64,000 nucleotides of DNA, taken from Clostridia bacterium (GTDB taxonomy: Bacteria > Bacillota > Clostridia > Christensenellales > UBA3700). This document shows, piece by piece, positions 33,187-61,984 of the stretch. The stretch spans positions 242 through 64,241 of the forward strand of contig JAIDUT010000058.1 of assembly GCA_029060065.1 (NCBI GenBank), written 5' to 3'. Positions within the stretch are counted from its first letter, which is position 1, and every line of letters begins with the position of its first letter. Both the position numbers and the translations under genes were made by a program. Under the pieces are notes generated by a model. The model was not told the origin of the DNA, searched no databases, and saw nothing but the letters and a program-made list of their open reading frames with translations.

Positions 33187-33266
33187 AAAAGTGAGGTGCA
33201 AAACACCTCACTTTCTATTACTCGCCAAGAGCGACTTCTTGGCTGTGGCGGAAGCGGAGGGATTCG
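33187..33266. repeat. Terminator hairpin plus tRNA-Ser 3' end (the copy that is part of the intact gene)
   Basis: It matches 31752-31830. Confidence 0.85.
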
Positions 33267-33336
33267 AACCCTCGAGCCGATTACTCGGCTACTTGATTTC
33301 GAGTCAAGCCCGTTATGACCACTTCGATACGCTTCC
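33246..33336 (-). tRNA. tRNA-Ser (anticodon CGA), CCA-encoded, long variable arm
   Basis: The reverse complement is GGAAGCGTATCGAAGTGGTCATAACGGGCTTGACTCGAAATCAAGTAGCCGAGTAATCGGCTCGAGGGTTCGAATCCCTCCGCTTCCGCCA. The anticodon loop is CTCGAAA and the T-loop TTCGAAT. Confidence 0.93.
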
Positions 33337-33623
33337 GTATGGCATTAAGTTTAACGCATAAACTTCTTTTTGGCAAGCGAAATCAACTCATTTTCCAAAA
33401 ATGGCGTAAATTACAAGCTTACAGCTGACAAAATCAAAAATGAAATAATAATTTTACCACCCACTAATTACTTTATTGTACATAAAAACTCATATCATCT
33501 TGTTTTAAACAATATATGTCCTATTTTTTGGACAATTACCGATAATGCAGATTATTTTGACAAATTTTGTATTGATTTAGACATAAATGTATGCTAGACT
33601 TTGATTGTAAGTAAAATTTGGCA

Positions 33624-33697
33624 GAAAAAAAGCCACATCTACCTGTGGCACTTTTTAGTTTAGAATTTATTTTAACTATACCTAGCAATTCGTACTT
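33624..33697 (-). ncRNA. tracrRNA: Predicted tracrRNA (trans-activating CRISPR RNA)
   Basis: The minus strand reads AAGUACGAAUUGCUAGGUAUAGUUAAAAUAAAUUCUAAACUAAAAAGUGCCACAGGUAGAUGUGGCUUUUUUU. AGUACGAAUUGCUAG is a perfect 15-nt complement of repeat positions 12-26, and GUUAAAAU pairs with repeat GUUUUAGU across a bulge. The 3' end is a hairpin followed by U7. A near-consensus promoter lies just upstream. Confidence 0.8.
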
Positions 33698-33699
33698 AC

Positions 33700-33728
33700 A
33701 ATATATCACACATAGGAGTTGTTGTCAA
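33700..33728 (-). promoter_or_regulatory. Candidate tracrRNA promoter (TTGACA, 17 nt, TGnTATATT)
   Basis: On the minus strand the -35 TTGACA is at 33728-33723 and the extended -10 TGaTATATT ends at 33700. The -35 box overlaps the first base of the cas9 ATG. Confidence 0.6.
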
Positions 33729-36700
33729 TGGAAAATGTAAAAAAAATCGGAAATTATTCAATAGGAATAGATATCGGTACTAATAGCGCTGGTTGGGCGG
33801 TGATGAACGATGATTATACTCTCCTTAGAGTAAACCATAAAAATCTATGGGGCGTAAACCTTTTCGACGAAGGTATGCCCGCACAGGATAGACGAGCAAA
33901 GCGTACCGCTCGCAGGCGTCTTGTACGACGCAAACAACGTATCGCTACCCTACGAAAACTAATGGAAAGCGATGTATTAAAAGCCGACGAGTCATTCTTC
34001 ATCAGAATGGACCAAAGTTATTTGCATAAAAACGACGACTTCGGTAGAGAATGTAAATATAATCTTTTCGCGGACAAGCTCTACACTGACAAAGAGTTTT
34101 ACACGCAGTATCCGACGATTTATCATCTAAAAAAGGCATTGTTAGAGAGCTATGAAAAGTTTGATATCCGCCTAGTATATTTGGCAATTCACCACATAAT
34201 AAAATACAGAGGCAACTTCTTGTATGAAGGCGACGCCGAAGGATTCAAGGGTTATGACGTCGAGTATATCAAAAACTGTTTCGACGAATTAGATGACAGC
34301 GCAATATATATTGACAAAATAAACGACGTTGAAAAAATACTTCTTGACGACTCCAAAAAACGTAAAGAAAAAGTAGAAAGCATCAAAAGTTTGTTTAGCT
34401 CTAAAGAAGAACAAGCCTACGCCGAACAATTTGCCAATGCCGTCCTTGGACTAAAGTTTAATCTCGGCGTTGTATTAGGTAACCGTGATGATATAAAGAA
34501 TGAGAACGGCAAACCTTTGACGATTAGTTTTTCTGACGCGAGTTATGAAGAAAAAGCCGATGATTATATCAACCTAGCATCTGACGATGCTCCCCTACTC
34601 GGTGCGCTGTACACACTTTACTATTCTCTAACGTTCAAGGAGATACTCGGCAATAACGACTATATCTCCTATGCTATGTGCGATAAATATGATATACACC
34701 ATAGAGATCTCTATGACATAAAGGGCTTGATGAAGGAATACTGCGACGAGAAATCGTACGCGCAATTCTTCACTTCAAAGGAAAGCAAGGCTAAAGATTA
34801 TATATGCTATTACAATTATATTCATAGAATAAACAAGCTAAAAGCAAATAATAAGACTCCCAACGAAGTCTTTGTCGACGAAATCTTTAAGTTACTTGAA
34901 AAGACGTCGCGAATACAAGAACTTCAAGACGATGAGAGGTATATGCGACTAAAGGCAATTCATCAAAACAATTTGAGGGAGATTTTACCTAAGCTAAACT
35001 CTAAGGTCAATGCGACTATTCCCTATCAAATGAATTATAAAGAGCTAAAAATCATTCTTGAAAAACAAAGTAAGTACTACCCTTCGCTTAAAGAAAACAA
35101 AGATAAGATTATCTCACTGCTGACATTTAGACGTCCATACTACGTAGGCGTACTAAATAAAAATAGTAAATTCAGCTGGTACGACAAGGACATTGACGGC
35201 AAAGTCGAGCCGTGGAATTTTAACGATAAGATTGACCTTGGTTACGCGCAAGAAAGATTTATAGAGAACTTGACTAACAACTGTTCCGTATTCCTTGAAG
35301 AGCCCGTCTTACCGCTCAATTCTTTCCTCTATAGCGAGTATATGGCGCTTGACGAACTCAACAAAATTAAAGTAAATGGCAAACTTCTCTCGCCTTCCGT
35401 CAAAAAACAACTCTTTACGGATTTGTTCTGTTCGGCAAACGCAAAGGCGAAAGTCACCAATAGCGATATCGCAGAATGGTTGAATAAGAATGAAAATCTC
35501 AAGTTGAGCAAGTCGGATATAACAGGTCTCCACGAGGACGACCACTTAGCAAATATCTACAAGCCGTACAGGGATTTTAAGAGAATCTTAGGCGACAATT
35601 TTAGCGAAAAGAATATCCAAGATATTTACGAAGAAATCGTAAAAATACTTACAATATTCGACGTCAATGATAAGCAGACGAGAATGGAAAGAATTGAAAA
35701 GGCGCTCGATAAAGATAAAACTAACGCCGTAAGCCAAAATCAGATTATGGCTCTTGCTAAACTCAACTACAACGGTTGGGGACGGTTCTCCAAAAAGGTA
35801 CTCAACGGAATCTACAGCAAAGAAGATAATCGTCGCACTGTTATCCAAGTAATGAGAGATACCGTTAAAAACTTTATGGAAATTACTGCAACTAAGAACA
35901 GCCCATACGGTTTCTACGAGCAAATGCAACCGCAAAAGCAAGACATCGAGAACTTCTACGCCGATTGCATTGAAAACAGTTACTGCTCGCCTGCCGTAAA
36001 GAAATCCACCAATCAAGCTATAAAACTCATAAAAGAGATTATCAAAATAGTCGGTCATGCTCCATCGGCTGTTTATCTCGAAAGCGCAAGCGGTGAGGAA
36101 TTAAATAAGAAAGGCAAGAGAACAAAATCCAAAGCCGATACCCTCAAAGAACTTTACGACAAAGTAACAAAGTCTGCGCGCGACGAAGATTATGAAAGGA
36201 CTAAGATAGAACTTAAAACTCGCATAGATGACGAAAAGGCAAGAAACGTCAAGTCCAACGAATCTGCCTTCAATAAAGAAAAACTATATCTATACTTCAC
36301 ACAACTTGGCAAATGTATGTACAGTGGCGATTCGCTCGACGTAAGCCAGCTGGATAAGTACGAAGTCGACCATATTATTCCGCAATCTCTCATAAAGGAC
36401 GACAGCAGAGATAATAAGGTACTCGTCAAAAAGATTGAAAACCAAAACAAAACCGATAATCTAACTCTGAGCAAGGACGTCATTGCTAGAATGACCGCCA
36501 CTTGGAAAAAACTGCTCAGGATGAATTTCATCAGCAAGAAAAAGTTTTACGCTCTCACGAGAGAGAATTTTGACGAGAGAGATATAGAGCAATTCATAGA
36601 GCGCCAACTCGTGGAAACTCGACAGACTGTTAAAGTCGTGGGAGATATCGTCAAGTTGCTTCCTGAACTCGATGGTTGCGATGTCGTAAAAGTACCGGCT

Positions 36701-37987
36701 AAATCTTGCAATAACTTAAAATCTGCACTAGGCTACTTCAAGGTAAGAGAGCTCAACGACTATCATCATGCTAAAGACGCGTATATCGCCTGCGTATTCG
36801 GTAGATTTGCGCAAAATACAGTAAGTAAAAACAACGGTGGCTTTAGACAGCTCTATCGCAAAGGCATACAGATGAGCCTTAATGACGGAGGTAGAGGCAA
36901 GTCGCAAAAACTACGCCACGGCTTGGTCGTAAATATGATGAATCTGAGATTCGGCTCTATTCTCAGAACCGCCAACGAAGAGTATGACGAGAAAGGCAAT
37001 CTCTTACGCCAAGAATTGCAAATGCTCTCCCCCGATGGTGAGATAATATGGTCGTCCACGTACCGCGAAAACGTTTTAAGAACACTCAACTACAACGACT
37101 GTCTATTGACAAAAAAGATTGAAGAAGAGGCAAATTCGGATTTCTATGACCAAACAATTTACGGAAAGAATAGCTCTAAGTCTAATTTGATTCCACGCAA
37201 AATGGCAGTAAATAAGTTCGGCAAAAAAGTCGACTTACCACCTCAGCAATACGGCGGATATAGTTCTATTAGTTCCGCGTACGCTATAGCAATAGAATAC
37301 AAAAAAGGTAAAAAATACGAGAGAAAAATTGTCAATATTCCTCTCCTCAACGTATATAAAAATAACGTCGACGAGTACCTAAAGCACAACTACGGCGAGT
37401 ACACCGTTCTAAAAGACAAGATATGCAAAAATCAAATGCTTATCTATAAAGGACAACTATGTTACTATATATCGGAGTCGGAACTCAATAACGCTACGCA
37501 AATCAAAGGCAAACAATATTGGCAAGAAGCATTAAGTAAGATTGCAAAAGCTAATGAGAGAAAGACGTGGCTGTGTAAAGATAATATGACGGACGAAGAA
37601 TACACTAAAATAAACAGGCAAATGCGAGCATTCGTAAACGACTTCCTAGACCAACTCGGAAAAAAATATTTTGCGCTCTACAACGATATAGCAAAAAATA
37701 TAAAGGAAGGCTTCGTCGATAAAGGAGGCTTTGATGCATTGTCTTTTGAGCTTAAGCAATCGTTTATATTTGAATTACTGAAGATTACATCTACAGCGGG
37801 CAGGACAGATAAACTCAAAGATTATATAGTTACCGTTGACGGCGAGACTCTTACGATTAAAGGGGCGAGTTTAGGCAGGCTTACCCAAAAACTCAACCTT
37901 GACGATATAACTTTCGTCAACCGTTCTATTACCGGGTTCTGGGAAAAGAAAATTCCCGCTAGCCAGCTCCGAAAGGATAAGAAATAA
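33728..37987 (+). CDS. cas9: CRISPR-associated endonuclease Cas9 (type II-A), 1419 aa from the ATG at 33728
   Basis: RuvC-I is IGIDIGTNSAGWAV (Asp codon at 33770-33772). The Arg-rich bridge helix is RRAKRTARRRLVRRKQRI. RuvC-II is VYLESA (Glu at 36080-36082). HNH is YEVDHIIPQS...DNKVLV (His at 36371-36373). RuvC-III is NDYHHAKDAYI (36764-36778). An AGGAG RBS lies 9 nt upstream. Confidence 0.97.
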   Translation: MENVKKIGNYSIGIDIGTNSAGWAVMNDDYTLLRVNHKNLWGVNLFDEGMPAQDRRAKRTARRRLVRRKQRIATLRKLMESDVLKADESFFIRMDQSYLHKNDDFGRECKYNLFADKLYTDKEFYTQYPTIYHLKKALLESYEKFDIRLVYLAIHHIIKYRGNFLYEGDAEGFKGYDVEYIKNCFDELDDSAIYIDKINDVEKILLDDSKKRKEKVESIKSLFSSKEEQAYAEQFANAVLGLKFNLGVVLGNRDDIKNENGKPLTISFSDASYEEKADDYINLASDDAPLLGALYTLYYSLTFKEILGNNDYISYAMCDKYDIHHRDLYDIKGLMKEYCDEKSYAQFFTSKESKAKDYICYYNYIHRINKLKANNKTPNEVFVDEIFKLLEKTSRIQELQDDERYMRLKAIHQNNLREILPKLNSKVNATIPYQMNYKELKIILEKQSKYYPSLKENKDKIISLLTFRRPYYVGVLNKNSKFSWYDKDIDGKVEPWNFNDKIDLGYAQERFIENLTNNCSVFLEEPVLPLNSFLYSEYMALDELNKIKVNGKLLSPSVKKQLFTDLFCSANAKAKVTNSDIAEWLNKNENLKLSKSDITGLHEDDHLANIYKPYRDFKRILGDNFSEKNIQDIYEEIVKILTIFDVNDKQTRMERIEKALDKDKTNAVSQNQIMALAKLNYNGWGRFSKKVLNGIYSKEDNRRTVIQVMRDTVKNFMEITATKNSPYGFYEQMQPQKQDIENFYADCIENSYCSPAVKKSTNQAIKLIKEIIKIVGHAPSAVYLESASGEELNKKGKRTKSKADTLKELYDKVTKSARDEDYERTKIELKTRIDDEKARNVKSNESAFNKEKLYLYFTQLGKCMYSGDSLDVSQLDKYEVDHIIPQSLIKDDSRDNKVLVKKIENQNKTDNLTLSKDVIARMTATWKKLLRMNFISKKKFYALTRENFDERDIEQFIERQLVETRQTVKVVGDIVKLLPELDGCDVVKVPAKSCNNLKSALGYFKVRELNDYHHAKDAYIACVFGRFAQNTVSKNNGGFRQLYRKGIQMSLNDGGRGKSQKLRHGLVVNMMNLRFGSILRTANEEYDEKGNLLRQELQMLSPDGEIIWSSTYRENVLRTLNYNDCLLTKKIEEEANSDFYDQTIYGKNSSKSNLIPRKMAVNKFGKKVDLPPQQYGGYSSISSAYAIAIEYKKGKKYERKIVNIPLLNVYKNNVDEYLKHNYGEYTVLKDKICKNQMLIYKGQLCYYISESELNNATQIKGKQYWQEALSKIAKANERKTWLCKDNMTDEEYTKINRQMRAFVNDFLDQLGKKYFALYNDIAKNIKEGFVDKGGFDALSFELKQSFIFELLKITSTAGRTDKLKDYIVTVDGETLTIKGASLGRLTQKLNLDDITFVNRSITGFWEKKIPASQLRKDKK

Positions 37988-38856
37988 TGGGTTGGCGTAG
38001 TATAGTAGTCGACTCGCCCAGTAAGATAAGTTTTAAGAATAACTATCTTGTAGTCACCGGTAACGATAACAATATGATTCATATTTCCGAAATAGATATG
38101 CTAATGGTCTCGACTACCCAAGCCACTATGACTGCGCACGCTCTATGTGAACTTAATAAAGCAAAGATACGAATAGTGTTCTGCGATGAAAAGCGTAATC
38201 CGTACGGCGAAATTGTAGGATACTATGGCTGTCATAATACAAGCAAAAAGATAGCTATGCAACTAAAATGGGAGGAGCAAGGAAAAGAAAAGATATTTAC
38301 TCAAATTATACGGCAAAAGATTGTCAATCAAGCCACATTGCTTGCAAAAGTAGGTAAACACACCGAAAGTTTATTACTCAAAAATTACGCCAACGAACTG
38401 CTACAAGGTGACGTAACCAATCGCGAGGGCTTTGCCGCTAAGGTATACTTCAACGCTTTGTTTGGCAAAGACTTCTCTCGCCAAATATTTAGCGATACCA
38501 ACTCAGCGCTTGACTATGGATATACTATTCTACTATCAGCGATAAACCGCGCCGTAATCAACTGCGGTTGCATCACGCAACTTGGTCTCAAGCATAGCAA
38601 TGAGTATAACTTCTTCAACCTCTCTTGCGATATAATAGAACCGTTTAGAGTGGCGGTCGACGAATACGTGTATGAAAATGTCGGACGTGTACTCGACAAA
38701 GATTACAAATTCGAGCTTGTCGATTTGCTCAATAAACAAGTCGTATTAAACGGCGAAAATATTTCTCTAGTAATGGCAATAAAGCAAGTGACTAAGGAAG
38801 TGATAGACCATCTGAATTGCCAAGTGTACGAAGGAATCAAACTCTATGAGATATAG
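37987..38856 (+). CDS. cas1: CRISPR-associated endonuclease Cas1 (type II)
   Basis: At 289 aa it has MGWRSIVV...SKISFKNNYLVV, typical of II-A Cas1, plus NSALDYGYTIL and EPFR motifs. The TAATG overlap couples it to the cas9 stop. Confidence 0.95.
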   Translation: MGWRSIVVDSPSKISFKNNYLVVTGNDNNMIHISEIDMLMVSTTQATMTAHALCELNKAKIRIVFCDEKRNPYGEIVGYYGCHNTSKKIAMQLKWEEQGKEKIFTQIIRQKIVNQATLLAKVGKHTESLLLKNYANELLQGDVTNREGFAAKVYFNALFGKDFSRQIFSDTNSALDYGYTILLSAINRAVINCGCITQLGLKHSNEYNFFNLSCDIIEPFRVAVDEYVYENVGRVLDKDYKFELVDLLNKQVVLNGENISLVMAIKQVTKEVIDHLNCQVYEGIKLYEI

Positions 38857-39166
38857 ATATATGAGAATGTTGTTGTTTTTTGACTTACCTACCGATACTT
38901 TTAAGCAAAAACGGGATTATCGATTATTCCGTAAGGCGCTTATAAATGACGGCTTCTATATGCTACAAGAATCCGTCTACTGCAAAATGGTAATAAACAG
39001 GTCAAACGCCGATTTAACAAAAGCTCGAGTCAAAAAGATATGCCCCATCGAAGGCAACGTAATGTGGCTTTGCATAACTGAAAAACAGTTTGCATCAATA
39101 GAACTACTGTGCGGTAGTTTTGATTCAAAGGTTATATCTAGCGAGGATAGACTAATTATACTATGA
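38846..39166 (+). CDS. cas2: CRISPR-associated endoribonuclease Cas2
   Basis: MRYRYMRMLLFFDLPTDT closely parallels the S. pyogenes Cas2 N-terminus as I recall it. The length is 106 aa. It overlaps the cas1 end by 11 nt. Confidence 0.93.
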   Translation: MRYRYMRMLLFFDLPTDTFKQKRDYRLFRKALINDGFYMLQESVYCKMVINRSNADLTKARVKKICPIEGNVMWLCITEKQFASIELLCGSFDSKVISSEDRLIIL

Positions 39167-39840
39167 CGATACGACTGTTTTGCTCAGATTATCAATTAGA
39201 CATACTAGACGACGAAGTGGCTACTTTGGAAGTACTCAACCGAGACTGCTTTCGTAGAATAATCAATGAACTCAAGGGAACCGGTACGCAAGAAATAAGA
39301 GAAATCAATTTGTTCAATGATAATTCTTTTATAGATACAAAAGATATGACAATTATCTTTGACCCGTACGAAGTGGACGTCAATGATAAAACTTATCTTT
39401 CTAGACTCTACAAAGAAATTGAAAAACATTTCAAGCAATCTGATGACAATATATTTTCACTCAATGAACTGAGCGCATATATAAATTTGCACTTTCACAA
39501 CTTAATATTTGGATACCCATTAGAATTGACGATGAAAGATGAACTTGCATTAAAAGATTATTTGAAGTTTTTGGACGTTAAAGTAGCTGAGGAAGATCAA
39601 TCTTTACTAGATAGAATTATTCAGTTCATTAACGTAAACGGCGTAATTAAATTTACCAAAGTCATTGTATTCGTCAACTTAAAGTCTATGCTTACTCAAG
39701 TAGATATAGACAGCGTAATTCAATCTGCAATACGCACTCGCTGTCCTTTGCTCTTGCTTGAAAACGTATCAGACAATCGAGTTTTCCCAAGTGAGCGTAA
39801 ACTTATAGTTGACGAAGAGTTATTCACTGTAGTAAAATAA
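39163..39840 (+). CDS. csn2: Csn2 (type II-A signature adaptation protein, short ~220-aa form)
   Basis: At 225 aa it sits between cas2 and the array. The C-terminal half (VIVFVNLKSMLTQVDIDSV...PLLLLEN...LIVDEELF) parallels S. pyogenes Csn2. An ATGA overlap couples it to cas2. Confidence 0.85.
   Translation: MTIRLFCSDYQLDILDDEVATLEVLNRDCFRRIINELKGTGTQEIREINLFNDNSFIDTKDMTIIFDPYEVDVNDKTYLSRLYKEIEKHFKQSDDNIFSLNELSAYINLHFHNLIFGYPLELTMKDELALKDYLKFLDVKVAEEDQSLLDRIIQFINVNGVIKFTKVIVFVNLKSMLTQVDIDSVIQSAIRTRCPLLLLENVSDNRVFPSERKLIVDEELFTVVK
39809..39838 (+). promoter_or_regulatory. Candidate pre-crRNA promoter in the csn2 3' end
   Basis: TTGACG at 39809-39814, an 18-nt spacer, then TAAAAT at 39833-39838. 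The predicted transcription start is ~40 nt upstream of repeat 1. Confidence 0.45.
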
Positions 39841-39886
39841 AATTACGGATTAATAGACCTATTCCTTTTATTTTTATCAATTTGAG
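39841..39886 (+). promoter_or_regulatory. CRISPR leader (46 nt, AT-rich, ends ATTTGAG next to repeat 1)
   Basis: The sequence is AATTACGGATTAATAGACCTATTCCTTTTATTTTTATCAATTTGAG, immediately followed by GTTTTAG. Confidence 0.7.
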
Positions 39887-40447
39887 GTTTTAGTACTCTA
39901 GCAATTCGTACTATTAAACAACTTATGTTTGGTATAATTTCTCCACTAATTTGTTTTAGTACTCTAGCAATTCGTACTATTAAACAACGGGACAAAGGCA
40001 ACCACACCGCGGGCGACTGTTTTAGTACTCTAGCAATTCGTACTATTAAACAACTAAAAAAAAAGTATCGGAACAAGAGAAAAGGTTTTAGTACTCTAGC
40101 AATTCGTACTATTAAACAACTTAACATTTTGCGCATACGTGTGACGGTTGGTTTTAGTACTCTAGCAATTCGTACTATTAAACAACATCCGCATTTATAC
40201 TTGGACATTATAAAGTGTTTTAGTACTCTAGCAATTCGTACTATTAAACAACTCTTTATTATTTCTATATACTGCATCAATCGTTTTAGTACTCTAGCAA
40301 TTCGTACTATTAAACAACGCGTAACGTACAGAACAAACAACCGACTGTGTTTTAGTACTCTAGCAATTCGTACTATTAAACAACTGCCGTTATACGATTT
40401 TCTGAGTTTACTGTGTTTTAGTACTCTAGCAATTCGCTTTTCACAAC
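39887..40447 (+). CRISPR. CRISPR array: 8 identical 36-nt repeats plus 1 degenerate terminal repeat, and 8 unique 30-nt spacers
   Basis: The repeat GTTTTAGTACTCTAGCAATTCGTACTATTAAACAAC starts at 39887, 39953, 40019, 40085, 40151, 40217, 40283 and 40349 (period 66). In the terminal repeat (40415-40447) the first 22 nt are identical and the rest has diverged. Confidence 0.98.
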
Positions 40448-40879
40448 GCACTAAACCGTTTGGCGCTCAAACGCTCAAAATAAAATATGAGCCATTCGGT
40501 TAAAACTCTTAGCAGGGCAATACCGAAAGTAAGTAATCAGTCGTAATACTTTATTACATACAGTTTAACGCATTTTTTGAACAGTTTGCGAAGTTGGTTA
40601 AAAAAAGGCACTCAAGGAAATGACGGCAACGGAAGCGATATTGCGAACGATGCAGGAATTAGCGGATAACTGCGAAACGCTTGAAGAATTCCGCAAAGCC
40701 CTTGCAAAGATAATCAAACAAGGCATAAAAGAAACCGCCCACGCGTTGAGAGTCTAGACGGTTTGGGGGGTCGAGGGGCAACGCTTGTCGTCCCTCTGAC
40801 TTTTCTTTATTATACGGCAAGCAAATATAAAGTCAATAATTGGATGATATAAGATGAAAAGAAATGAACTAATGACCTC

Positions 40880-40908
40880 TTGAACTTTCAAGCAAGATTT
40901 GATAAAAT
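40880..40908 (+). promoter_or_regulatory. Candidate promoter for the small Cys-rich ORF
   Basis: TTGAAC, a 17-nt spacer, then TAAAAT. Confidence 0.4.
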
Positions 40909-40952
40909 GAGTAAAAGAAACATTGGAAACCAAACAAAGGAGATATAAAATT

Positions 40953-41078
40953 ATGAACTATTTTAATTGTAGTAGGTGTCCCTACTGTCAACCTACTAAA
41001 GACTATATGATGTGTTACTGCACTTATTGGAGCAAAATTGTTTATAGAACAGACGGTTGCGCAAGAGATGAAGATTAA
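40953..41078 (+). CDS. Candidate 41-aa Cys-rich small protein (MNYFNCSRCPYCQPTKDYMMCYCTYWSKIVYRTDGCARDED)
   Basis: An AAAGGAG RBS lies 8 nt upstream of the ATG, a promoter-like element is 45 nt upstream, and a bidirectional terminator is downstream. It is below the ORF-track length cutoff. 7 of the 41 residues are Cys. Confidence 0.4.
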   Translation: MNYFNCSRCPYCQPTKDYMMCYCTYWSKIVYRTDGCARDED

Positions 41079-41144
41079 AAAGTATTCTTTTATGTTTATA
41101 AAGTTACGCTTTAATTTATGTAACAAGAAAATAAATACCGAAAA

Positions 41145-41178
41145 AAGTGAAAGCCCCGAAAAATTTCGGGGCTTTTTG
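41145..41178. terminator. Bidirectional Rho-independent terminator (ends the rpsI operon and the plus-strand small ORF)
   Basis: The hairpin GCCCCGAAAAATTTCGGGGC is flanked by an A-run on the left and T5 on the right. Confidence 0.8.
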
Positions 41179-41192
41179 ATTGTTGATTTTGA

Positions 41193-41606
41193 TTATCTCT
41201 TTGAGAATTGCGGAGCTCTTCTTGCTTTCTTGAGACCGTATTTCTTTCTTTCTTTTGCTCTTGGATCTCTTGTCAAGAAACCTGCTTTTTTCAAAGCTGA
41301 CTTTGTTTCTTCATCTGCGAGAACCAATGCTCTTGAGATACCGTGTCTGATTGCGCCTGCTTGACCTGTGAAGCCACCGCCGTGTACGTTGACGATAACG
41401 TCATACTTTGCAGTGCTACCTGTCAATTCAAGCGGTTGACGAACGATAAGTTTAAGAGTGTCTAGACCGAAGTATTCGTCAATACTTCTCTTGTTGATGG
41501 TGATTGCGCCGTTGCCGTCAGGAATAAGTCTAACTCTAGCGATAGCTTTCTTTCTTCTTCCGGTTCCCCAGAACTGAACTTTTTTCTTAGTCTTCTTCGT
41601 AGCCAT
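41193..41606 (-). CDS. rpsI: 30S ribosomal protein S9
   Basis: [14 protein letters not shown] is present and the C-terminus is the canonical PQFSKR. Confidence 0.98.
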
Positions 41607-41622
41607 TTGTCATTACTCCTTC

Positions 41623-42054
41623 TTAAAATTTCAAATCTTCGGGCTTTTGAGCCTGTTGGTTGTGCTCAGCGCCTGCGTAGCAACGCAATTTGGTGAGTTG
41701 CTTTCTTCCGAGCGAATTTTTGGGGAGCATTCCCTTTACGGCGAGCATAACTGCTCTTTCCGGCTTTTCTGCCATTAACTTCTTATATTGAATCTCTTTA
41801 AGACCGCCGATATATCCAGAGTGGTGGATATGCACCTTCTTCTCCAATTTCTTACCGGTCAATCTCACGTTGGCGCAGTTGACGATGATAACATGGTCAC
41901 CGCAATCTACGTTGGGCGTATAAATAGGCTTATTCTTACCTCTGAGAACGTTGGCAACGTTGCTTGCAAGTCTACCGAGTACCATATCGGTTGCGTCAAC
42001 GACGTACCATTTTTCCTTAACGTCTTCAGGTTTTGCCATATATGTCTTATTCAC
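41623..42054 (-). CDS. rplM: 50S ribosomal protein L13
   Basis: [17 protein letters not shown] and HHSGYIGG are L13 motifs. The GTG start has a GGAGGG RBS. Confidence 0.98.
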
Positions 42055-42223
42055 GGATAAAACCCTCCATTGTATTTGTAATAATATTGTTAGGTTGTCA
42101 CGTATCAGAGGGGCTAGTTCTTCAACATAACTTCTTTACCAAGTAATTTTAATAAAAAACTAAATAAATGTCAAATAATTTTCAAAGATTTTTTATATTT
42201 TCTTAAAAAATTACGTTATAAGC

Positions 42224-43243
42224 CTACCAAATAAAATCTTTAGCCACTATCCAAGCAAAATACCCCGCGTACATAACAAGCATAGTGATACCTCCGGCGC
42301 GCTTGAGCTTTTTGTCCTTGGTGAGCAAGATACAAAGGAAAAGCACTATACCAACGACTATAGACATGATATTGTCTATCATAAAGCCCGTTATCCAATT
42401 CGTGTCATAGGCTATTGTCGAAATAAGCGACGACGTCCCGAGAACAAACAGAATATTGAATATATTACTTCCTACAATATTGCCGATTGCCAAGTCTGCT
42501 TCGCCTTTTTTTGCCGCAGTCATAGACGTGACAAGTTCCGGCAACGACGTACCGAACGCAACAATCGTCAAACCTATTAGGCTCTCAGACATACCAAATC
42601 CTGAGGCTATTGTCTGAGCTCCTTTGACTATGGCTTGCGAACCAAGAATTACGAGCGCGATACCCACGGCAAGTTTGCCTAGCATCTTTGCAATCTCAAT
42701 ACTTTTCTTTTGAGGTTTTTCTTCCTCTTGATCTACCTCTTTCTCACTCTCTTGCAAATCTGCAATAGCCGACTTATCTTTCTTGGAAAGAATAATGAGA
42801 TATACGAAAAACGCTATAAAGAACAACCACAAAATCAAGCCGTCTATCCAGCTCAACTGCTTGCCTACTACGCCCAATATCATAAGAACAGAAGAAATAA
42901 CTATTACGAAAGGGATCTCTATATAAAGCGTACTTTTCTTCACTGCAAGCGGTGTAAACAGCGCGCATAGACCTAAAATCAGAAATATATTCATTACGTT
43001 GGAGCCAAGCACGTTGCCAATGGCAAGTCCCGCGCTACCCTTGATCGCCGACGTAATACTTATCGCCGCTTCGGGGGCGCTCGTACCGAACGCAACTATT
43101 GTCAAACCTATTACAATTTGAGGTATGCCGAATTTTTTGGCAATCATTGACGCGCCGTCAACAAACCAATCGGCGCCCTTGATGAGCATGAAAAATCCCA
43201 CTATCAACAATGACGTTTGCGCCGCAATACTCCAAAAATCCAT
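42224..43243 (-). CDS. Calcium/sodium antiporter (CaCA/YrbG family)
   Basis: It has two alpha-repeat motifs, GLTIVAFGTSAPE and GLTIVAFGTSLPE. Confidence 0.9.
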   Translation of the reverse strand: MDFWSIAAQTSLLIVGFFMLIKGADWFVDGASMIAKKFGIPQIVIGLTIVAFGTSAPEAAISITSAIKGSAGLAIGNVLGSNVMNIFLILGLCALFTPLAVKKSTLYIEIPFVIVISSVLMILGVVGKQLSWIDGLILWLFFIAFFVYLIILSKKDKSAIADLQESEKEVDQEEEKPQKKSIEIAKMLGKLAVGIALVILGSQAIVKGAQTIASGFGMSESLIGLTIVAFGTSLPELVTSMTAAKKGEADLAIGNIVGSNIFNILFVLGTSSLISTIAYDTNWITGFMIDNIMSIVVGIVLFLCILLTKDKKLKRAGGITMLVMYAGYFAWIVAKDFIW

Positions 43244-43533
43244 ATATACCTCCCATACGTCTTTTACCCTATCATATTTATTATATTATAAAAAACAAAA
43301 TTTTAAGATGTATTTTTTTGTAATTTCTACCTGTATTTTGTAGATTCTACACGATATAATCATGGCTTTTAAGCCTTATTGTTCTCTGCAAAAAGTTAAA
43401 AATAATACCCGATTTATCTATATTTTTCTCTTTATAATATATTAATTAGACTATACAAAATCATTAATAACTTGTTTTTTGCATCCAACTATGATATGAT
43501 GACTCTGCGATAAACAGTAATTTAGAGGACTAA

Positions 43534-43989
43534 ATGATTATCAGAGAATATGAGCCAGCAGACTGTGAACACTTAACTAAACTGTTCTATGGAACAGTTC
43601 ATACTATAAATGCCAAAGATTATTCGCACGAGCAGTTAAATGTTTGGGCTACTAACAAAATAGATTTAGAAGTGTGGAACAAATCACTTTCCGAGCATTA
43701 TACTGTTGTTGCCGTTGAAAATAATATAATAGTTGGTTTTGGCGATATTGATAAATCGGGTTATCTTGATAGGTTATATGTACACAAAGACTATCAGCGT
43801 CAAGGCATTGCAACGGCAATCTGCGATAAATTAGAACAAGCAGTTAAAGTAAATAAAATAATTACTCACGCTTCTATAACAGCTAAACCTTTTTTTGAAC
43901 AACGAAGTTTTAAGGTTGTCAAAGAGCAACAAGTTGAAAGAAATGGAATTGCCTTGACTAATTATGTAATGGAAAAACAAATACGATAA
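43534..43989 (+). CDS. GNAT-family N-acetyltransferase
   Basis: The acetyl-CoA motif is LYVHKDYQRQGIATAI. The length is 151 aa. Confidence 0.85.
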   Translation: MIIREYEPADCEHLTKLFYGTVHTINAKDYSHEQLNVWATNKIDLEVWNKSLSEHYTVVAVENNIIVGFGDIDKSGYLDRLYVHKDYQRQGIATAICDKLEQAVKVNKIITHASITAKPFFEQRSFKVVKEQQVERNGIALTNYVMEKQIR

Positions 43990-44106
43990 ATTTCAATTTA
44001 TTTTACTTCGTTAAGTTAGTTAAAAGCTCTCGGACAAACTATCCGAGAGCTTTTCGATATTTTTAATTAAGTTTAGACCTCTTCTCTACGCTTGAGGTGA
44101 CAAATA

Positions 44107-44643
44107 TTACTTGAAATACTTCTCGTAAAGTCCCTTAAAACCGCAACCGTGTCTAGCCTCGTCCTTAGCCATTTCGTGAACGGTGTCGTGTACGTCGTCG
44201 TAGCCGAGCTTCTTTGCAAGTTTAGCAAGCTCCAGCTTACCTGCGCAAGCGCCGTTCTCTGCTTCCATACGCATCTTAACGTTTTTAGCCGTGCTGTTCG
44301 TCAATACGTCGCCGAGAAGTTCGGCAAACTTAGAAGCGTGTTCAGCTTCTTCAAAAGCATATCTCTTGAAAGCCTCGGCAACGTCCGGATATCCCTCTCT
44401 GTCAGCTTGTCTGGACATTGCAAGGTACATACCGACTTCTGCGCACTCGCCGTTAAAGTTATCGACAAGTCCTTTGATTACCTCTTTGTCATAGCCCTTT
44501 GCGCTACCGACTATGTGCTCGCAAGCCCAAGCCAATTCGCCTTCTACCTCTTTGAAAGTCTTTGCTCCGCAGACGGGGCATTTTTCAGGAGCGTTATCTC
44601 CCTCGTGAACGTGACCGCACACTGTGCATACGTATTTTGCCAT
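44107..44643 (-). CDS. rbr: Reverse rubrerythrin (N-terminal rubredoxin-like domain plus ferritin-like diiron domain)
   Basis: The N-terminus has CTVCGHV...CPVCG. The diiron ligands are in E..EV..Y...ADREG and EEAEHASKF / EARH. Confidence 0.88.
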
Positions 44644-44703
44644 AATAAATTACCTCCGTATAATATATGTTTACTTATTTTTACGGCATAAGCCGTGAAT
44701 AGC

Positions 44704-45081
44704 TCATTTATCTTTACAGTCTTCGCAAGTATTATAAAAACTCAAAGCATATCTTGACAACTCCAAACCGTCGCAACACTCGTCAAGTATGCCTTTCAAT
44801 TTTTGCGGATACGGCATATCGATAATCTTTCCGCACTTGTCGCATATAACGTGACAATGCGTGTCAAGTTCTACGTCATATCTCTCCTTTTCGCCAGCGC
44901 CTATTACTCTGCCAAGCGCACCTTGTTTCTCAAGATAAGCCAAATTGCGATATACTGTCGCAAGAGATATGTTGGGGATAGTCTTGCGACATTCCTCATA
45001 TATCATATCCGCAGAAGGATGACACCTCATGTTTTGTATTACCTCAAGCACTGCTTGTCGGCGCGAAGAAAAGTTTGCCAT
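44704..45081 (-). CDS. Fur-family transcriptional regulator (PerR-like by context)
   Basis: It has a winged helix (SLATVYRNLAYL), HCHVICDKCGK and a C-terminal CEDC, and it lies upstream of rubrerythrin. Confidence 0.85.
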   Translation of the reverse strand: MANFSSRRQAVLEVIQNMRCHPSADMIYEECRKTIPNISLATVYRNLAYLEKQGALGRVIGAGEKERYDVELDTHCHVICDKCGKIIDMPYPQKLKGILDECCDGLELSRYALSFYNTCEDCKDK

Positions 45082-45131
45082 TTGCAGTTTTTATATTATC
45101 ACTAAAATATAATTCTGTCAATAAAAATAAT

Positions 45132-45144
45132 AATGATTATCATT
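45132..45144. promoter_or_regulatory. Fur/PerR-box-like palindrome upstream of the Fur-family gene
   Basis: AATGATTATCATT is a 6-1-6 perfect palindrome containing GATTATC-type hexamers, about 50 nt upstream of the start. Confidence 0.5.
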
Positions 45145-45247
45145 TTTATTTTTAATAATTTATTAAATCAATATGATAATAGCAAATACCCGCAGTGATA
45201 TCACCACGGGTATTTGCTAAAAGTAAACATATATGGAGGTAATTCTT

Positions 45248-45457
45248 TTACTTTAATTTGCTATCTTGTTTTTTATAAGCCGATGGACATACTCCGCAAC
45301 CTGAACACTTTCCGCAATCGCAACCGCAACCGCATTTTCCGTGCTTTTTTGCCCATATCTTATAAGCTATATATCCGCCGAAACCGCCCACCAATATCAC
45401 TGCCACAACTATACCTACGACAATTTCCGCAACACCTGCGCACAGTAAGCTAAGCAT
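45248..45457 (-). CDS. FeoB-associated Cys-rich membrane protein
   Basis: MLSLLCAGVAEIVVGIVVAVILV is a TM helix, followed by KCGCGCDCGKCSGCGVC. It lies immediately after feoB with an 8-nt overlap. The start is placed at the internal ATG at 45457. Confidence 0.8.
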   Translation of the reverse strand: MLSLLCAGVAEIVVGIVVAVILVGGFGGYIAYKIWAKKHGKCGCGCDCGKCSGCGVCPSAYKKQDSKLK

Positions 45458-47765
45458 TTTCTTTCTCCTTTTTACCAATACGTTTTTTGTTGATAAAATG
45501 AGCGGATACAATTATCAAAGCTATGACTACCGCAAAGATAAACACCGTCCACCAATACGTGCCGACAAGATATATCATCATAGACACTATATACGATGTG
45601 AGTATCCAGAACAGTATCGCTAACGCAGTGCGTTTTGCCGAGCCAAGTTCGCCGGACGCCGCGCCGACTGCCGCCATACAAGGCACTGTAAGCAAGTTGA
45701 AAGCCATGAAAGCTACGATGCCCGCCGTCGTAACTCCGCTCTCAGACACGAATGCTTCGACACTTCCTGCAAGAACTTCGATTGACGATACGACTTCTTC
45801 TTTTGCTACAAGTCCAGTAACCGTAGCAACTATATATTTCCAATTCCCAAAACCAAGCGGTTTGAACAGCCATTCAAGCCAACTGCCGACGACTTTAAGG
45901 ATACACTCCTCTTCACCAACCATTTGGAACTTGAAATTAAAGTTCAGTAGATACCAAATAATTATAGTTGACGCGGCTATGACCGTACCGGCTCGGAATA
46001 CAAAGTGTTTGAGCTTTTGCCAAATATGTATCGTCACGCTCTTAAATTGCGGAGTATGGTAGGTAGGCAATTCCATAATAAACGGTGTTACGCCCTTTTG
46101 TCCGCTAATCTTCTTAAGTATCAACGACGCAATCATCGCAACGACTATACCTATAATATACATACCGAATACAGTCAGCTCGCTATTCCAACCTACTGTC
46201 GTAGCTAAAACTCCCGCAAAAGCGTACCATATCGGGCTCTTTGCTCCGCATGAGAAGAACGGCGCGAGAAGTATCGTAGCGCGTCTTTCCTTAGCATTTT
46301 CTATAGTACGCGTTGCCATAATACCCGGCACAGCGCAACCGAAACACATAAGTAGTGGCATAAAAGATTTTCCAGAAAGACCAATGCGCCTAAACGCCCT
46401 ATCCATTATGAACGCTACTCTTGCCATATATCCCGTATCTTCAAGTATTGTTAAAAACAAGAACAGCAACATTATCTGCGGTATAAAAGACAGCACTCCG
46501 AACACGCCTGCCAAAACGCCGTCGCAAATTACGCCGTACGCCCAATCAGGAGCATTTTTTAGCAACTGCGGTATCCAACCGCCCTCTTCTTCCACCACTT
46601 GAATCGCATCTCCGTTTTCGTCAAAACCGTCCTCGACCACTCTTTCTCCGTTGACAAGTCCTGCCAGTTCTTCTACTAAGCCCTGTAAAAATACGCCCGG
46701 GGACTTAATGGAGTTGGCTCCCGATTGCTCTTCCTCGTCATACTCCGTGTCAACGAATAGCGAAGCTACCAGACCTGCGTCCTTAAACGCCCCGTCTGGA
46801 ATAACCGCCGACAAATAGAATAAATTCTCGCTAAAAGTGAGGTGGAATATAGCAAATATAATCAATAGGAATATCGGTATACCCCAAAATTTGTGCGTTA
46901 ATACCTTATCCGCCTTATCGCTTTTGGATATTGCGGGTTTCTCTTTGTCCACAGTGATTACGTCGCTGAAATTATCATTAATATACTGATATCTTTGGTC
47001 TGCGACGCAAGTTTCGAAATTACCCTTATACCTATTTTTAACTTCTTGATTTCTTGCCTTTATTTCCGTAATTTGACTTGCGAGCGATGTATACTTATCT
47101 AGAGTAAGTATATCTCCTTCGACAAGTTTTACGCTGTCAAATAGTTTGTGCTTAGAATCGCTATCGCCCAAAAGTAGCATTACATTGTCAACGCTTTCTT
47201 TGAGAATACCCGAAGATACAAAAGACACCGCCTCTCTTTTAACGCCCTTCTGTTCCTTAACGGCTTGCATAAGTTCTTTAAGTCCCTTTTGCTTGAGGGC
47301 GGAAATTGCTACTACCGGTACGCCCAACTTTTGCGACAAAGCCTTAACGTCAATTCTCTCTCCGTTAGCTCTCAAGCAGTCTGCCATATTGAGCGCCACT
47401 ACTACAGGCACGCCTATTTCCAATATCTGAGTAGTCAAATATAAATTACGCTGTAGATTGGTAGCATCGATAATATTGAGTATCACGTCCGCGTCTTGTG
47501 AAAGTATGTAATCGCGCGAAACTACTTCTTCCGGAGAATACGGCGAAAGCGAATAGATACCCGGCAAATCCACTATATCAACCGTTAAGTCGCTCTTTTT
47601 GTCCTTATAAGTGCCCTCGAGTTTTTCTACCGTAACGCCGGTCCAGTTGCCAACGTGAGCCGTTGCGCCTGTCAAAGCATTAAAAAGCGTAGTCTTACCG
47701 CAGTTAGGATTACCTACCAAAGCAACTTTTATGTCACTGCGCTTGGTCTGTCGTGACTTCTTCAT
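45450..47765 (-). CDS. feoB: Ferrous iron transporter FeoB
   Basis: The N-terminal G domain has VALVGNPNCGKTTLFNALTG and DLPGIYSL, followed by a large polytopic membrane domain. Confidence 0.97.
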   Translation of the reverse strand: MKKSRQTKRSDIKVALVGNPNCGKTTLFNALTGATAHVGNWTGVTVEKLEGTYKDKKSDLTVDIVDLPGIYSLSPYSPEEVVSRDYILSQDADVILNIIDATNLQRNLYLTTQILEIGVPVVVALNMADCLRANGERIDVKALSQKLGVPVVAISALKQKGLKELMQAVKEQKGVKREAVSFVSSGILKESVDNVMLLLGDSDSKHKLFDSVKLVEGDILTLDKYTSLASQITEIKARNQEVKNRYKGNFETCVADQRYQYINDNFSDVITVDKEKPAISKSDKADKVLTHKFWGIPIFLLIIFAIFHLTFSENLFYLSAVIPDGAFKDAGLVASLFVDTEYDEEEQSGANSIKSPGVFLQGLVEELAGLVNGERVVEDGFDENGDAIQVVEEEGGWIPQLLKNAPDWAYGVICDGVLAGVFGVLSFIPQIMLLFLFLTILEDTGYMARVAFIMDRAFRRIGLSGKSFMPLLMCFGCAVPGIMATRTIENAKERRATILLAPFFSCGAKSPIWYAFAGVLATTVGWNSELTVFGMYIIGIVVAMIASLILKKISGQKGVTPFIMELPTYHTPQFKSVTIHIWQKLKHFVFRAGTVIAASTIIIWYLLNFNFKFQMVGEEECILKVVGSWLEWLFKPLGFGNWKYIVATVTGLVAKEEVVSSIEVLAGSVEAFVSESGVTTAGIVAFMAFNLLTVPCMAAVGAASGELGSAKRTALAILFWILTSYIVSMMIYLVGTYWWTVFIFAVVIALIIVSAHFINKKRIGKKEKENA

Positions 47766-59995: not shown

Positions 59996-60128
59996 AAATC
60001 TCCTCACTAAAACAGCCTACTTTATTATATAAATTCACCAACGCTTTATGACACTGCATATATTTTTATTGACAAAAATATTATTTATTGTTATTATTTA
60101 TACGTTATTATCTAACAAGGATTATATT

Positions 60129-60953
60129 ATGGGAAAAAACTCATTTACTTCATTTGACAAAGATATTTCTATGGAATTAACGCAAGACGAAGAGATGCTT
60201 GTAAGATGCGCGCCTCAAAAGGCGTCGTTTGTGCTATCAAAAAGCGTAGCAATTATGCCATTCGCTTTAATTTGGCTATGCTTTGACGGCTTTGCCATAT
60301 CAATGATTGCTAAGGCAGGAATGCCTACTAGCATGAGAATAGTCATGGTAATATTTTTCGCCTTTCACCTTTTGCCGGTATGGCTATGGATATTTAGCAT
60401 AATAAAGGCGCTAAGAGTACACAAAAATTTAGAGTATGCACTGACCAACGAGCGTATTATCGTACGCGATAAAGATAAACTATTGAGTTATTATTACAAA
60501 GATTTGTGCAAAGTGCAAGTTCGCGTTGGTTTTATTGACAAAATGTTCAAAGTCGGAGATATAGTTATTACTAGAAAAACTCCAACATATGAAAACGGTT
60601 ATAGTTATAATAATATCAATAGGTTTGTCGTAACGCTTCTAGACCTTGCAAATCCGCGCGCAGTAGGAGATAAACTACAAGAATTTATCGACAGCGAAAC
60701 TTCTAAGTTCGACCAAAGCAATAGACAAGACGGCGCCGAGTACGAAAGTTATTACGAAACGGATAATAATAGCAAATTCACTAAAAAATACGACTGCAAC
60801 AACACTAGTAAATACTATAATGATAAAAACGACTATGAAAAAGATTCTATAAGATATACCTCAAAGAAAAAGTCTGAGCCCACTCAAAAAACAGAGGAAG
60901 ACGATTATCTTGATAATATTATGGATTCTATAAATAAAAAAGACGAATTTTAA
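60129..60953 (+). CDS. Membrane protein with a bacterial PH (YdbS/YdbT-like) domain and a low-complexity C-terminal tail
   Basis: Two TM helices are followed by YALTNERIIVRD...GDIVI. An AAGGA RBS precedes the ATG at 60129. Confidence 0.6.
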   Translation: MGKNSFTSFDKDISMELTQDEEMLVRCAPQKASFVLSKSVAIMPFALIWLCFDGFAISMIAKAGMPTSMRIVMVIFFAFHLLPVWLWIFSIIKALRVHKNLEYALTNERIIVRDKDKLLSYYYKDLCKVQVRVGFIDKMFKVGDIVITRKTPTYENGYSYNNINRFVVTLLDLANPRAVGDKLQEFIDSETSKFDQSNRQDGAEYESYYETDNNSKFTKKYDCNNTSKYYNDKNDYEKDSIRYTSKKKSEPTQKTEEDDYLDNIMDSINKKDEF

Positions 60954-61160
60954 TTATATATCGCTTAGTCCTATTAAATAATCGGTTGATACGTTAAATA
61001 GAATAGCTATCTCTCGCAAAGTAACTAGACTTGGCTCGCCTATCGCCAACTCATAACGTGAATATGACTGTTGCTTGATATGCAACTTTTCCGCCATATA
61101 TTGTTGAGAAAAATTATGTTGAATCCTCAACTCTTTCAGTCTTTGCGCAAATATTTTCAT
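60954..61160 (-). CDS. XRE-family helix-turn-helix transcriptional regulator
   Basis: The 68-aa product has LKELRIQHNFSQQYMAEKL...S.YE (HTH_3) and ends DYLIGLSD. Confidence 0.85.
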   Translation of the reverse strand: MKIFAQRLKELRIQHNFSQQYMAEKLHIKQQSYSRYELAIGEPSLVTLREIAILFNVSTDYLIGLSDI

Positions 61161-61183
61161 AAATATTATCCAACTACTTGAAT

Positions 61184-61204
61184 TTTACAGCAAACTGTTG
61201 TAAA
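61184..61204. promoter_or_regulatory. Inverted repeat (operator candidate) between divergent XRE genes
   Basis: TTTACAGCA-AAC-TGTTGTAAA has 9-nt arms with one mismatch. Confidence 0.35.
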
Positions 61205-61262
61205 ATATTCACGTAACAACAAAACGCTGTGAAAATGCGCTATATTGAAACTAAGGATAATT

Positions 61263-61475
61263 ATGAGCGACAAAATATCGGTGGCAGAATTGAGAACAAG
61301 AATAGCTCAAAATATAAAAAAGTGCGACATCAACGTTTCGCAACTTGCGCAGATTACTCATATATCTAACGCTGAAATGCTTGATATCGTGCACGGCAAC
61401 ACTCTACCCAGTATCGACGTGCTGAGAAAATTAAGCGAAACACTCAATATTCCACTAAGTTATTTCTTTGAATAA
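61263..61475 (+). CDS. XRE-family helix-turn-helix transcriptional regulator
   Basis: IAQNIKKCDINVSQLAQITHIS is the HTH. An AAGGA RBS precedes the ATG at 61263. Confidence 0.8.
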   Translation: MSDKISVAELRTRIAQNIKKCDINVSQLAQITHISNAEMLDIVHGNTLPSIDVLRKLSETLNIPLSYFFE

Positions 61476-61530
61476 TTTAATATAATTTTACTCTATATCT
61501 CAAGATGCAATCCTGAAATACAAATCGACA

Positions 61531-61743
61531 TTAATAATTCTCTTTAAGACCCAAGAGATAATCTGCAGAAATGTTGAAAGCCAACGAGATACGTCGCAAC
61601 GTGTCGTATCCCGGGTTAGCTTTACCGTTTAACCATTCGCTGACCTGACTTTGCTTAACGCCTATTGCATTTGCAAAAGCAGTCTGAGTCAAATTATTAA
61701 GAATCATAAACTCTTTTAAGATTTCGTCAAAACTAGGTTCCAT
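61531..61743 (-). CDS. XRE-family helix-turn-helix transcriptional regulator
   Basis: NNLTQTAFANAIGVKQSQVSEWLNG is the HTH_3 motif, and the protein ends DYLLGL. Confidence 0.85.
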   Translation of the reverse strand: MEPSFDEILKEFMILNNLTQTAFANAIGVKQSQVSEWLNGKANPGYDTLRRISLAFNISADYLLGLKENY

Positions 61744-61754
61744 ACTTTTATTAT

Positions 61755-61797
61755 TATAGAAAATTCTATAAATTACTTGACATATAGAAATTTCTAT
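61755..61797. promoter_or_regulatory. Two related palindromes (operator candidates) upstream of the 61531 XRE gene
   Basis: TATAGAA-AA-TTCTATA (61755-61770) and ATAGAAATTTCTAT (61784-61797) flank a TTGACA hexamer. Confidence 0.45.
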
Positions 61798-61984
61798 GTC
61801 AAAATATAAATTTTAATATATCTACCTAATTATTTAACAATTTAATTTTTTCTATTCAGTAACACTAAAAATACTTGGACTTGAACCAATATTTTTGATA
61901 TTCTTAACATATCTGCTATAATAAATACAATTTATTTTCAAAATGGCAATAATACAAACGAAGAATTAAAAGGAGTAACAAAAA

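Follow-up and report, generated by a model that had tools for sequence, protein, structure and literature searches.

In Streptococcus pyogenes SF370, the type II-A locus of short palindromic repeats that are clustered and regularly interspaced (CRISPR) with the associated nuclease Cas9 is arranged as a divergent trans-activating CRISPR RNA (tracrRNA), the genes cas9, cas1, cas2, and csn2, a leader, and an array of 36-nucleotide (nt) repeats and 30-nt spacers. The expression of the cas genes is controlled in S. pyogenes by a long form of the tracrRNA (tracr-L), which acts as a natural single guide on Pcas (PMC11417352). In the Group 1 type II-A systems, which are similar to CRISPR1 of Streptococcus thermophilus, the leader ends in ATTTGAG and is followed by the GTTT of the first repeat; in S. 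thermophilus CRISPR1, adaptation was shown to depend on this junction (Van Orden et al. 2017, PMC5382924). Here, a locus with the same order of components as in S. pyogenes is described from a 64,000-nt stretch of DNA of an uncultured Clostridia bacterium (contig JAIDUT010000058.1), which is called the window throughout. The region 33624-40450 of the window most likely represents a complete and apparently intact locus for adaptive immunity by type II-A CRISPR-Cas9, which lies in the chromosome and would work in the canonical manner, a reading to which we assign a probability of about 0.88. Every sequence-level hallmark of type II-A for which the locus was tested was found there. Four features set the system as a whole apart from those of S. 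pyogenes and S. thermophilus: its divergent Cas9 (most of all in the domain that interacts with the protospacer adjacent motif, PAM), the tail of its tracrRNA, which is specific to the clade, its short leader combined with a promoter inside csn2, and the layout upstream of cas9. The components of the locus are as follows (aa, amino acids).

33625-33696, minus strand: tracrRNA of about 70 nt, with the anti-repeat at approximately 33696-33669, the terminator hairpin at 33649-33632, and a run of seven uridines (U7) at 33631-33625
33700-33728, minus strand: tracrRNA promoter TTGACA-17(TG)-TATATT (11/12), whose -35 box adjoins the cas9 start codon (CATTGACA)
33728-37987, plus strand: cas9, 1419 aa, ATG start, no internal stops (TIGR01865, 737 bits, cut-off 100)
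37987-38856, plus strand: cas1 (type II), 289 aa (TIGR03639, 287 bits)
38846-39166, plus strand: cas2, 106 aa (TIGR01573, 69.5 bits)
39163-39840, plus strand: csn2, 225 aa (TIGR01866, 122 bits, cut-off 35; PF09711, 76 bits)
39809-39838, plus strand: candidate promoter of the precursor CRISPR RNA (pre-crRNA), TTGACG-18-TAAAAT (10/12), inside the 3' end of csn2, with its -10 box overlapping the stop codon
39841-39886, plus strand: leader of 46 nt, ending in ATTTGAG (39880-39886), which is followed by the GTTT of repeat 1
39887-40450, plus strand: CRISPR array of eight identical 36-nt repeats (GTTTTAGTACTCTAGCAATTCGTACTATTAAACAAC) with a period of 66 and eight different 30-nt spacers

The four open reading frames (ORFs) run in the same direction and are joined by overlaps of 1 nt (TAATG), 11 nt, and 4 nt (ATGA). 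csn2 is the signature gene of subtype II-A, and the lengths of the three smaller proteins are close to those of the nearest related locus (L001, described below), in which Cas1 and Cas2 are equally long and Csn2 has 226 instead of 225 aa. An original prediction, made from the letters of the sequence, had proposed a complete and intact type II-A locus with this gene set, these lengths, and these overlaps, and had suggested profile typing of the proteins. The ORF coordinates agree with it, every component was found, and all four Cas proteins match their profiles far above the curated cut-offs. The array and the 46-nt leader were likewise described correctly, including the eight perfect repeats, the eight unique spacers, and one decayed distal repeat. 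That ninth repeat occupies 40415-40450 and is identical to the others in 26 of 36 positions, so that the predicted bounds hold in substance and only the right end moves, from 40447 to 40450.

The REC, PI (PAM-interacting), HNH (HNH_4), and RuvC (Cas9_RuvC) domains of the window Cas9 score above the Pfam cut-offs, and the bridge helix stays below its own (21.5 bits, cut-off 26.3). In an alignment with S. pyogenes Cas9 (SpCas9), whose reference sequence agrees with PDB 5f9r_B over residues 1-1368 (3047 bits), the residues D15, E785, D881, H882, N905, H1014, and D1017 correspond to D10, E762, D839, H840, N863, H983, and D986, and the bridge-helix arginines of SpCas9 are also retained. All seven mapped catalytic residues are thus conserved, which bears out the earlier statement that the catalytic motifs are present. 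The two proteins share 33% identity overall, which falls to about 20% across the C-terminal 220 residues. In this barely alignable PI region (about 20% identity), the position of SpCas9 R1333 is not conserved and is taken by a glycine, the position of R1335 corresponds to R1384, and an insertion of 10 residues lies between the two.

Among solved structures, the best matches to the window Cas9 are 9vj8 (a 1337-aa Cas9; 490 bits) and 9jwk (453 bits), both over residues ~2-1046; according to the literature, 9jwk is the Cas9 of Faecalibaculum rodentium (FrCas9). The domain order is shared with both, whereas the window protein is 47-82 aa longer and the matches end near residue 1046, before the PI domain. 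The PAM of FrCas9 is not transferable to the window Cas9. When the PI region alone (residues 1139-1419) was compared with solved Cas9 proteins, only marginal similarity was found (E 0.009-0.1 over ~55 residues). Solved Cas9 proteins of the length of Staphylococcus aureus Cas9 (SaCas9; ~1053-1056 aa) align only with residues ~437-1022 (E ~1e-11). The repeats of the S. aureus system and of the window have their first 13 nt (GTTTTAGTACTCT) in common and differ in the remainder, and the two tracrRNAs differ as well; the 14-mer GTTTTAGTACTCTG occurs in papers on SaCas9 single guide RNAs. Judged from its sequence, the window Cas9 is an uncharacterised ortholog, as the original prediction had supposed, and a distant relative of the genome-editing enzyme.

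The junction ATTTGAG/GTTT at the end of the leader is of the Group 1 type and not of the ACGAG type found in S. pyogenes. Together with the 36-nt repeat and the short Csn2 (~220-230 aa in Group 1), it places the locus close to the S. thermophilus CRISPR1-like systems, from which it differs in that its Cas9 and tracrRNA scaffold come from a separate Clostridia clade. The candidate pre-crRNA promoter inside csn2 is supported by comparison, because a TAnAAT box over the csn2 stop codon is retained (by eye) in nine of nine relatives even though the last codon varies. ACTGT forms the end of spacer 7 as well as of spacer 8, just ahead of the next repeat (40344-40348 and 40410-40414), probably by chance.

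The tracrRNA gene carries its own signals. Its promoter is the top promoter-like site (sigma-70-like) in the 7.5 kb scanned, and the promoter/terminator scan called a terminator on the same strand, consisting of GCCACAGGTAGATGTGGC followed by U7 (33649-33625, minus strand). The predicted duplex of repeat and anti-repeat has an energy of -28.7 kcal/mol; in it, a bulge of 3 nt separates a 6-base-pair (bp) lower stem (GUUUUA:UAAAAU) from an upper stem of ~19 bp. Outside the array, the anti-repeat is the strongest partner of the repeat in the window, where the background averages -8.9 kcal/mol with a standard deviation of 3.1 (25,320 windows). The presence of the small RNA, its anti-repeat, and its divergent strand had all been predicted; its placement was revised from 33624-33697 to ~33696 to 33625 on the minus strand.

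An equivalent element occupies the same position in L001 (74% Cas9 identity), L084 (61%), L085/L086 and L087 (57%), and L088-L091 (~40%). The abutment of the tracrRNA promoter's -35 box and the cas9 ATG is also found in L001, L084, L085/86, L087, L088, L089, and L091. An alignment of fused repeat and tracrRNA sequences with MAFFT was too badly registered for counting base pairs, and a matrix of duplex energies for cognate and non-cognate partners (9 x 9) was used in its place. Cognate repeats and anti-repeats form predicted duplexes of -22 to -36 kcal/mol, compared with -2 to -15 kcal/mol between subclades, and compensatory changes are seen within the duplex (CA/UG in the window becomes UG/CG in L001, and a G:C pair becomes A:U in L084). 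By these calculated energies, the anti-repeat co-varies with its cognate repeat across the nine related loci. This bears directly on the alternative that the element 5' of cas9 is a chance repeat-like fragment (a degenerate solo repeat) instead of a tracrRNA. Such an origin would fit the unremarkable z-score of the element's own fold (-0.75) and the Rfam results, since even under permissive settings (E up to 10) the tracrRNA locus gave only weak matches to unrelated families and none to a tracrRNA, and in the whole window the gathering thresholds were passed by three tRNAs only. Against a solo repeat stand the element's own promoter (11/12) and its terminator, both on the strand that makes the RNA complementary to the repeat, and its retention at the same position, in co-variation with the cognate repeat, down to ~40% Cas9 identity. 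We regard this explanation as very improbable.

The tracrRNA core GUUAAAAUAA and the following AAAAAGUG-hairpin-U tract resemble the scaffold of S. pyogenes, a likeness that had already been noticed in the original prediction. The window tracrRNA differs from that scaffold in that it lacks a nexus hairpin of the GGCUAGUCC type and has a single 3' hairpin as opposed to two; nor could a canonical nexus hairpin that contains GC be identified in it. A small hairpin (GUCGNAAGAC-like) stands ahead of the terminator hairpin in seven of nine relatives, and the window and L088 have the terminator hairpin only. No consensus structure was returned by RNAalifold for the tracrRNA tails of the related loci. 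In L088-L091, the sequences that follow the lower stem in these tails (AAUGCC, UGUCAA, and AAUGCU) were seen by eye to be complementary to part of the anti-repeats of the same RNAs (GGCAUU, UUGACA, and GGCAUU). The tails change in step with the anti-repeat and so mimic the repeat of the CRISPR RNA (crRNA), and in L089 the tail pairs better with the anti-repeat than the repeat does. Such pairing may be another way for the free tracrRNA to fold; the mimicry is not consistent in the window's own subclade.

From established knowledge of type II-A systems, the components would be expected to act together as follows. Transcription of the array would begin at the promoter that lies within the 3' end of csn2, and the divergently encoded tracrRNA of ~70 nt would pair with each repeat of the transcript. 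The resulting duplex would be processed by the host's RNase III together with Cas9. RNase III is the host factor required for tracrRNA-guided pre-crRNA processing, and its gene is present in the same window outside of the locus:

7684-8358, minus strand: rnc, RNase III (Pfam Ribonucleas_3_3, Ribonuclease_3, and dsrm)

The complex of Cas9, crRNA, and tracrRNA would then cut matching DNA beside a 3' PAM by means of its HNH and RuvC sites, and Cas1, Cas2, and Csn2, together with Cas9, would insert new spacers at the ATTTGAG/GTTT junction of leader and repeat.

A search of the eight spacers against databases, which had been suggested along with the original prediction, gave one protospacer. In IMG/VR, which was scanned once per spacer with the 3' 20 nt as the query, spacer 2 matches the viral contig IMGVR_UViG_3300035423_000083 (L082; 2533-2562, minus strand), with 29 of 30 positions identical and the one mismatch at PAM-distal position 8. 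The protospacer lies within the gene of a 205-aa DNA methylase (PF01555), and its 3' flank is TGGAGGCGCA (TGGAGG). This flank is compatible with a PAM of NGG or NGGNG, a single site being insufficient to define the motif. Two other matches were dismissed as chance or as conserved codons (NHTAGD), because they are confined to the queried 20 nt: one of spacer 1 (L081, 21 of 30 positions) and a second one of spacer 2 (L083, 23 of 30 positions). When the array was compared with GenBank phages and PLSDB plasmids, only chance-level matches were obtained (E >= 0.1), and the same was true of the L001 array against phages (E >= 0.1). Metagenome scans with the 26-nt core of the repeat and with spacer 1 yielded no matches. 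Within the window, no self-targets were found at up to 5 mismatches.

The region upstream of cas9 contains two further predicted elements, which are given here together.

33517-33534, no strand assigned: 18-bp palindrome TGTCCTATTTTTTGGACA (TGTCC-N8-GGACA), candidate protein-binding site 5' of the cas operon promoter
33572-33600, plus strand: predicted cas operon promoter TTGATT-17(TGc)-TAGACT, past the tracrRNA gene's 3' end

Of 85 related loci, 11 (L001, L084, L087-L091, L007, L015, L061, and L069, besides the window) carry a copy of the palindrome, exact or with one mismatch, at a distance of 211-285 nt upstream of cas9, compared with a background expectation of 0.64. The window's clade comprises eight loci, and in each of them a gap of 36-37 nt, fixed in length and unconserved in sequence, leads from the palindrome to the pattern TTGnnn-17-TAnnnT with TG at -15/-14, whose background frequency is 0.0006 per position. 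Deviations in the half-sites of the palindrome are not compensatory across the loci, which suits a site bound by a protein better than a hairpin formed in RNA. A literature search on the palindrome returned nothing relevant.

If the predicted promoter is used, the cas9 mRNA would start near 33607 and would cross the whole tracrRNA gene in antisense orientation, in convergence with the much stronger tracrRNA promoter; the centre of the palindrome would then lie near -81. As in the tracr-L/Pcas arrangement of S. pyogenes, the promoters predicted for the tracrRNA and for the cas genes overlap or oppose each other upstream of cas9, and their expression is likely to be coupled. The two systems differ in the probable nature of this coupling, which in the window would consist of convergent transcription, with a cas9 5' untranslated region (5'UTR) fully antisense to the tracrRNA and the palindrome at about -81. 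Since the tracrRNA promoter abuts the cas9 ATG, there is no room between them for a Pcas like that of S. pyogenes or for a long form of the tracr-L type, and neither a long tracr-L-type tracrRNA nor a self-target for one was identified at the locus.

We propose only tentatively, as a doubtful but conceivable reading, that these features form a joint regulatory design of the clade that is not known to have been described for type II-A. It would combine a cas promoter beyond the tracrRNA gene, a convergent near-consensus tracrRNA promoter abutting the cas9 start (which would make the cas9 5'UTR a perfect antisense of the tracrRNA), and a palindrome that is carried with the module at about -81 and binds a factor. 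It would also include a tracrRNA scaffold without the canonical nexus hairpin and a PI domain whose PAM is not predictable from known enzymes.

Several observations weigh against a working locus, and most of them would also be accounted for if the locus were intact yet silent or inactive in adaptation, that is, a vertically inherited fossil with a static array and a poorly expressed cas9. With a match of 8/12, the cas promoter predicted in the window is weak; it was not flagged by the promoter scan and is opposed by the near-consensus convergent tracrRNA promoter. The tracrRNA terminator hairpin is trailed by a T-run on the plus (cas9) strand as well, where it is terminator-like and might therefore attenuate cas9 transcripts. 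The window tracrRNA is one hairpin short, and without the second small hairpin its function could be reduced. Searches of GenBank phages, PLSDB plasmids, and IMG/VR left seven of the eight spacers unmatched, and to these points the lack of a tracrRNA match in Rfam has to be added. Furthermore, the only other long assembly that contains the locus (L094, ENA/NCBI assembly ERZ14208517) carries the same eight spacers; its contig is 100% identical to window 33285-45987 and may stem from the same sample.

Against a silent locus, on the other hand, stand the identity of all repeats, the full length of every ORF, the retention of all catalytic residues, and the agreement of spacer 2 with an extant viral contig. 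Moreover, L001, a contig of a metagenome-assembled genome (MAG) of a Clostridia bacterium (JAIDUV010000069.1), carries the same locus, with a 74% identical Cas9, in the corresponding place on the chromosome, and its array of 24 repeats has 23 spacers, none of which is shared with the window. These wholly different spacers at the same site show spacer turnover in the lineage. The silent alternative is consequently held to be improbable, and the locus is read as a probably functional adaptive immune system. The predicted description of an active, recently acquiring array can be kept only in a weaker form: it agrees with the identical repeats and with the protospacer of one of the eight spacers, and no spacer is held in common with L001. 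In a further assembly (L095, the Logan assembly of SRR14411251), the locus is 99.76% identical and the array is made up only of spacer 8 (the oldest of the window) and the decayed repeat, which could be either an ancestral short array or a collapse of repeats by the assembler.

As for its setting, the locus is flanked by tRNA-Ser(cga) (33246-33336, minus strand) on one side and by rpsI/rplM (41193-42054, minus strand) on the other, and the remaining genes of the window are of the housekeeping type (glycerol kinase, plsX, ack, pta, aconitase, typA, feoB, fur, and alr). An origin of the locus from a mobile element was ruled out because of these housekeeping neighbours, the uniform GC content of the window, and the synteny of the site with L001. 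Between the window and L001, DNA identity amounts to 72% in the cas region and 91% in rpsI/rplM. The GC minimum of the window lies at 60001-62000 (0.324 versus ~0.40 elsewhere).

The relatives returned by the homology search with Cas9 have 74, 73, 61, 57, and 57% identity, followed by values of at most 41%, and belong to a sparsely sampled Clostridia clade; among species representatives other than L001, Cas9 is at most 36% identical to that of the window. That search gave nothing above 74%, although the exact 1419-aa protein sits in two assemblies of the same collection, so that a missing self-match does not amount to absence from public data. The possible novelty of the enzyme raised in the original prediction has to be narrowed accordingly: the protein is uncharacterised, and its exact sequence is already contained in two public assemblies, one of which is ERZ14208517.

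Two observations on more distant loci may be added. The locus L088 (ENA ERZ26781176 NODE_9, 244 kb) retains cas9, an array, and a csn2 truncated to 125 aa, whereas cas1 and cas2 are missing, so that it seems to have lost its adaptation module. In the complete genome of the methanogenic archaeon Methanimicrococcus hongohii Hf6 (L040, chromosome NZ_CP131059.1, 541366-557409), a full type II-A-like locus is found, with a Cas9 of 1363 aa (~30% identical to that of the window), ORFs of the size of cas1, cas2, and csn2 (assigned by size alone), a leader ending in ATTTGAG, and more than 60 repeats of 36 nt. Full-length Cas9 matches also occur in two archaeal MAGs (Methanomethylophilaceae and Thermoplasmata; L071 and L076). 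To our knowledge, type II systems are rare in archaea, and the archaeal loci therefore look like a transfer from gut Firmicutes.

Thousands of comparable Cas9 orthologs are already present in databases. The divergent Cas9 described here, with a predicted guide scaffold and one protospacer, provides raw material for the discovery of PAMs and tools, and its PI domain is unlike that of any solved structure. The locus is also a lead on the control of Cas9 expression. If the layout proposed above from sequence comparison is true, the coupling of cas9 and tracrRNA expression by convergent antisense transcription would represent a second solution to the control of Cas9 dosage besides the tracr-L circuit of S. 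pyogenes.

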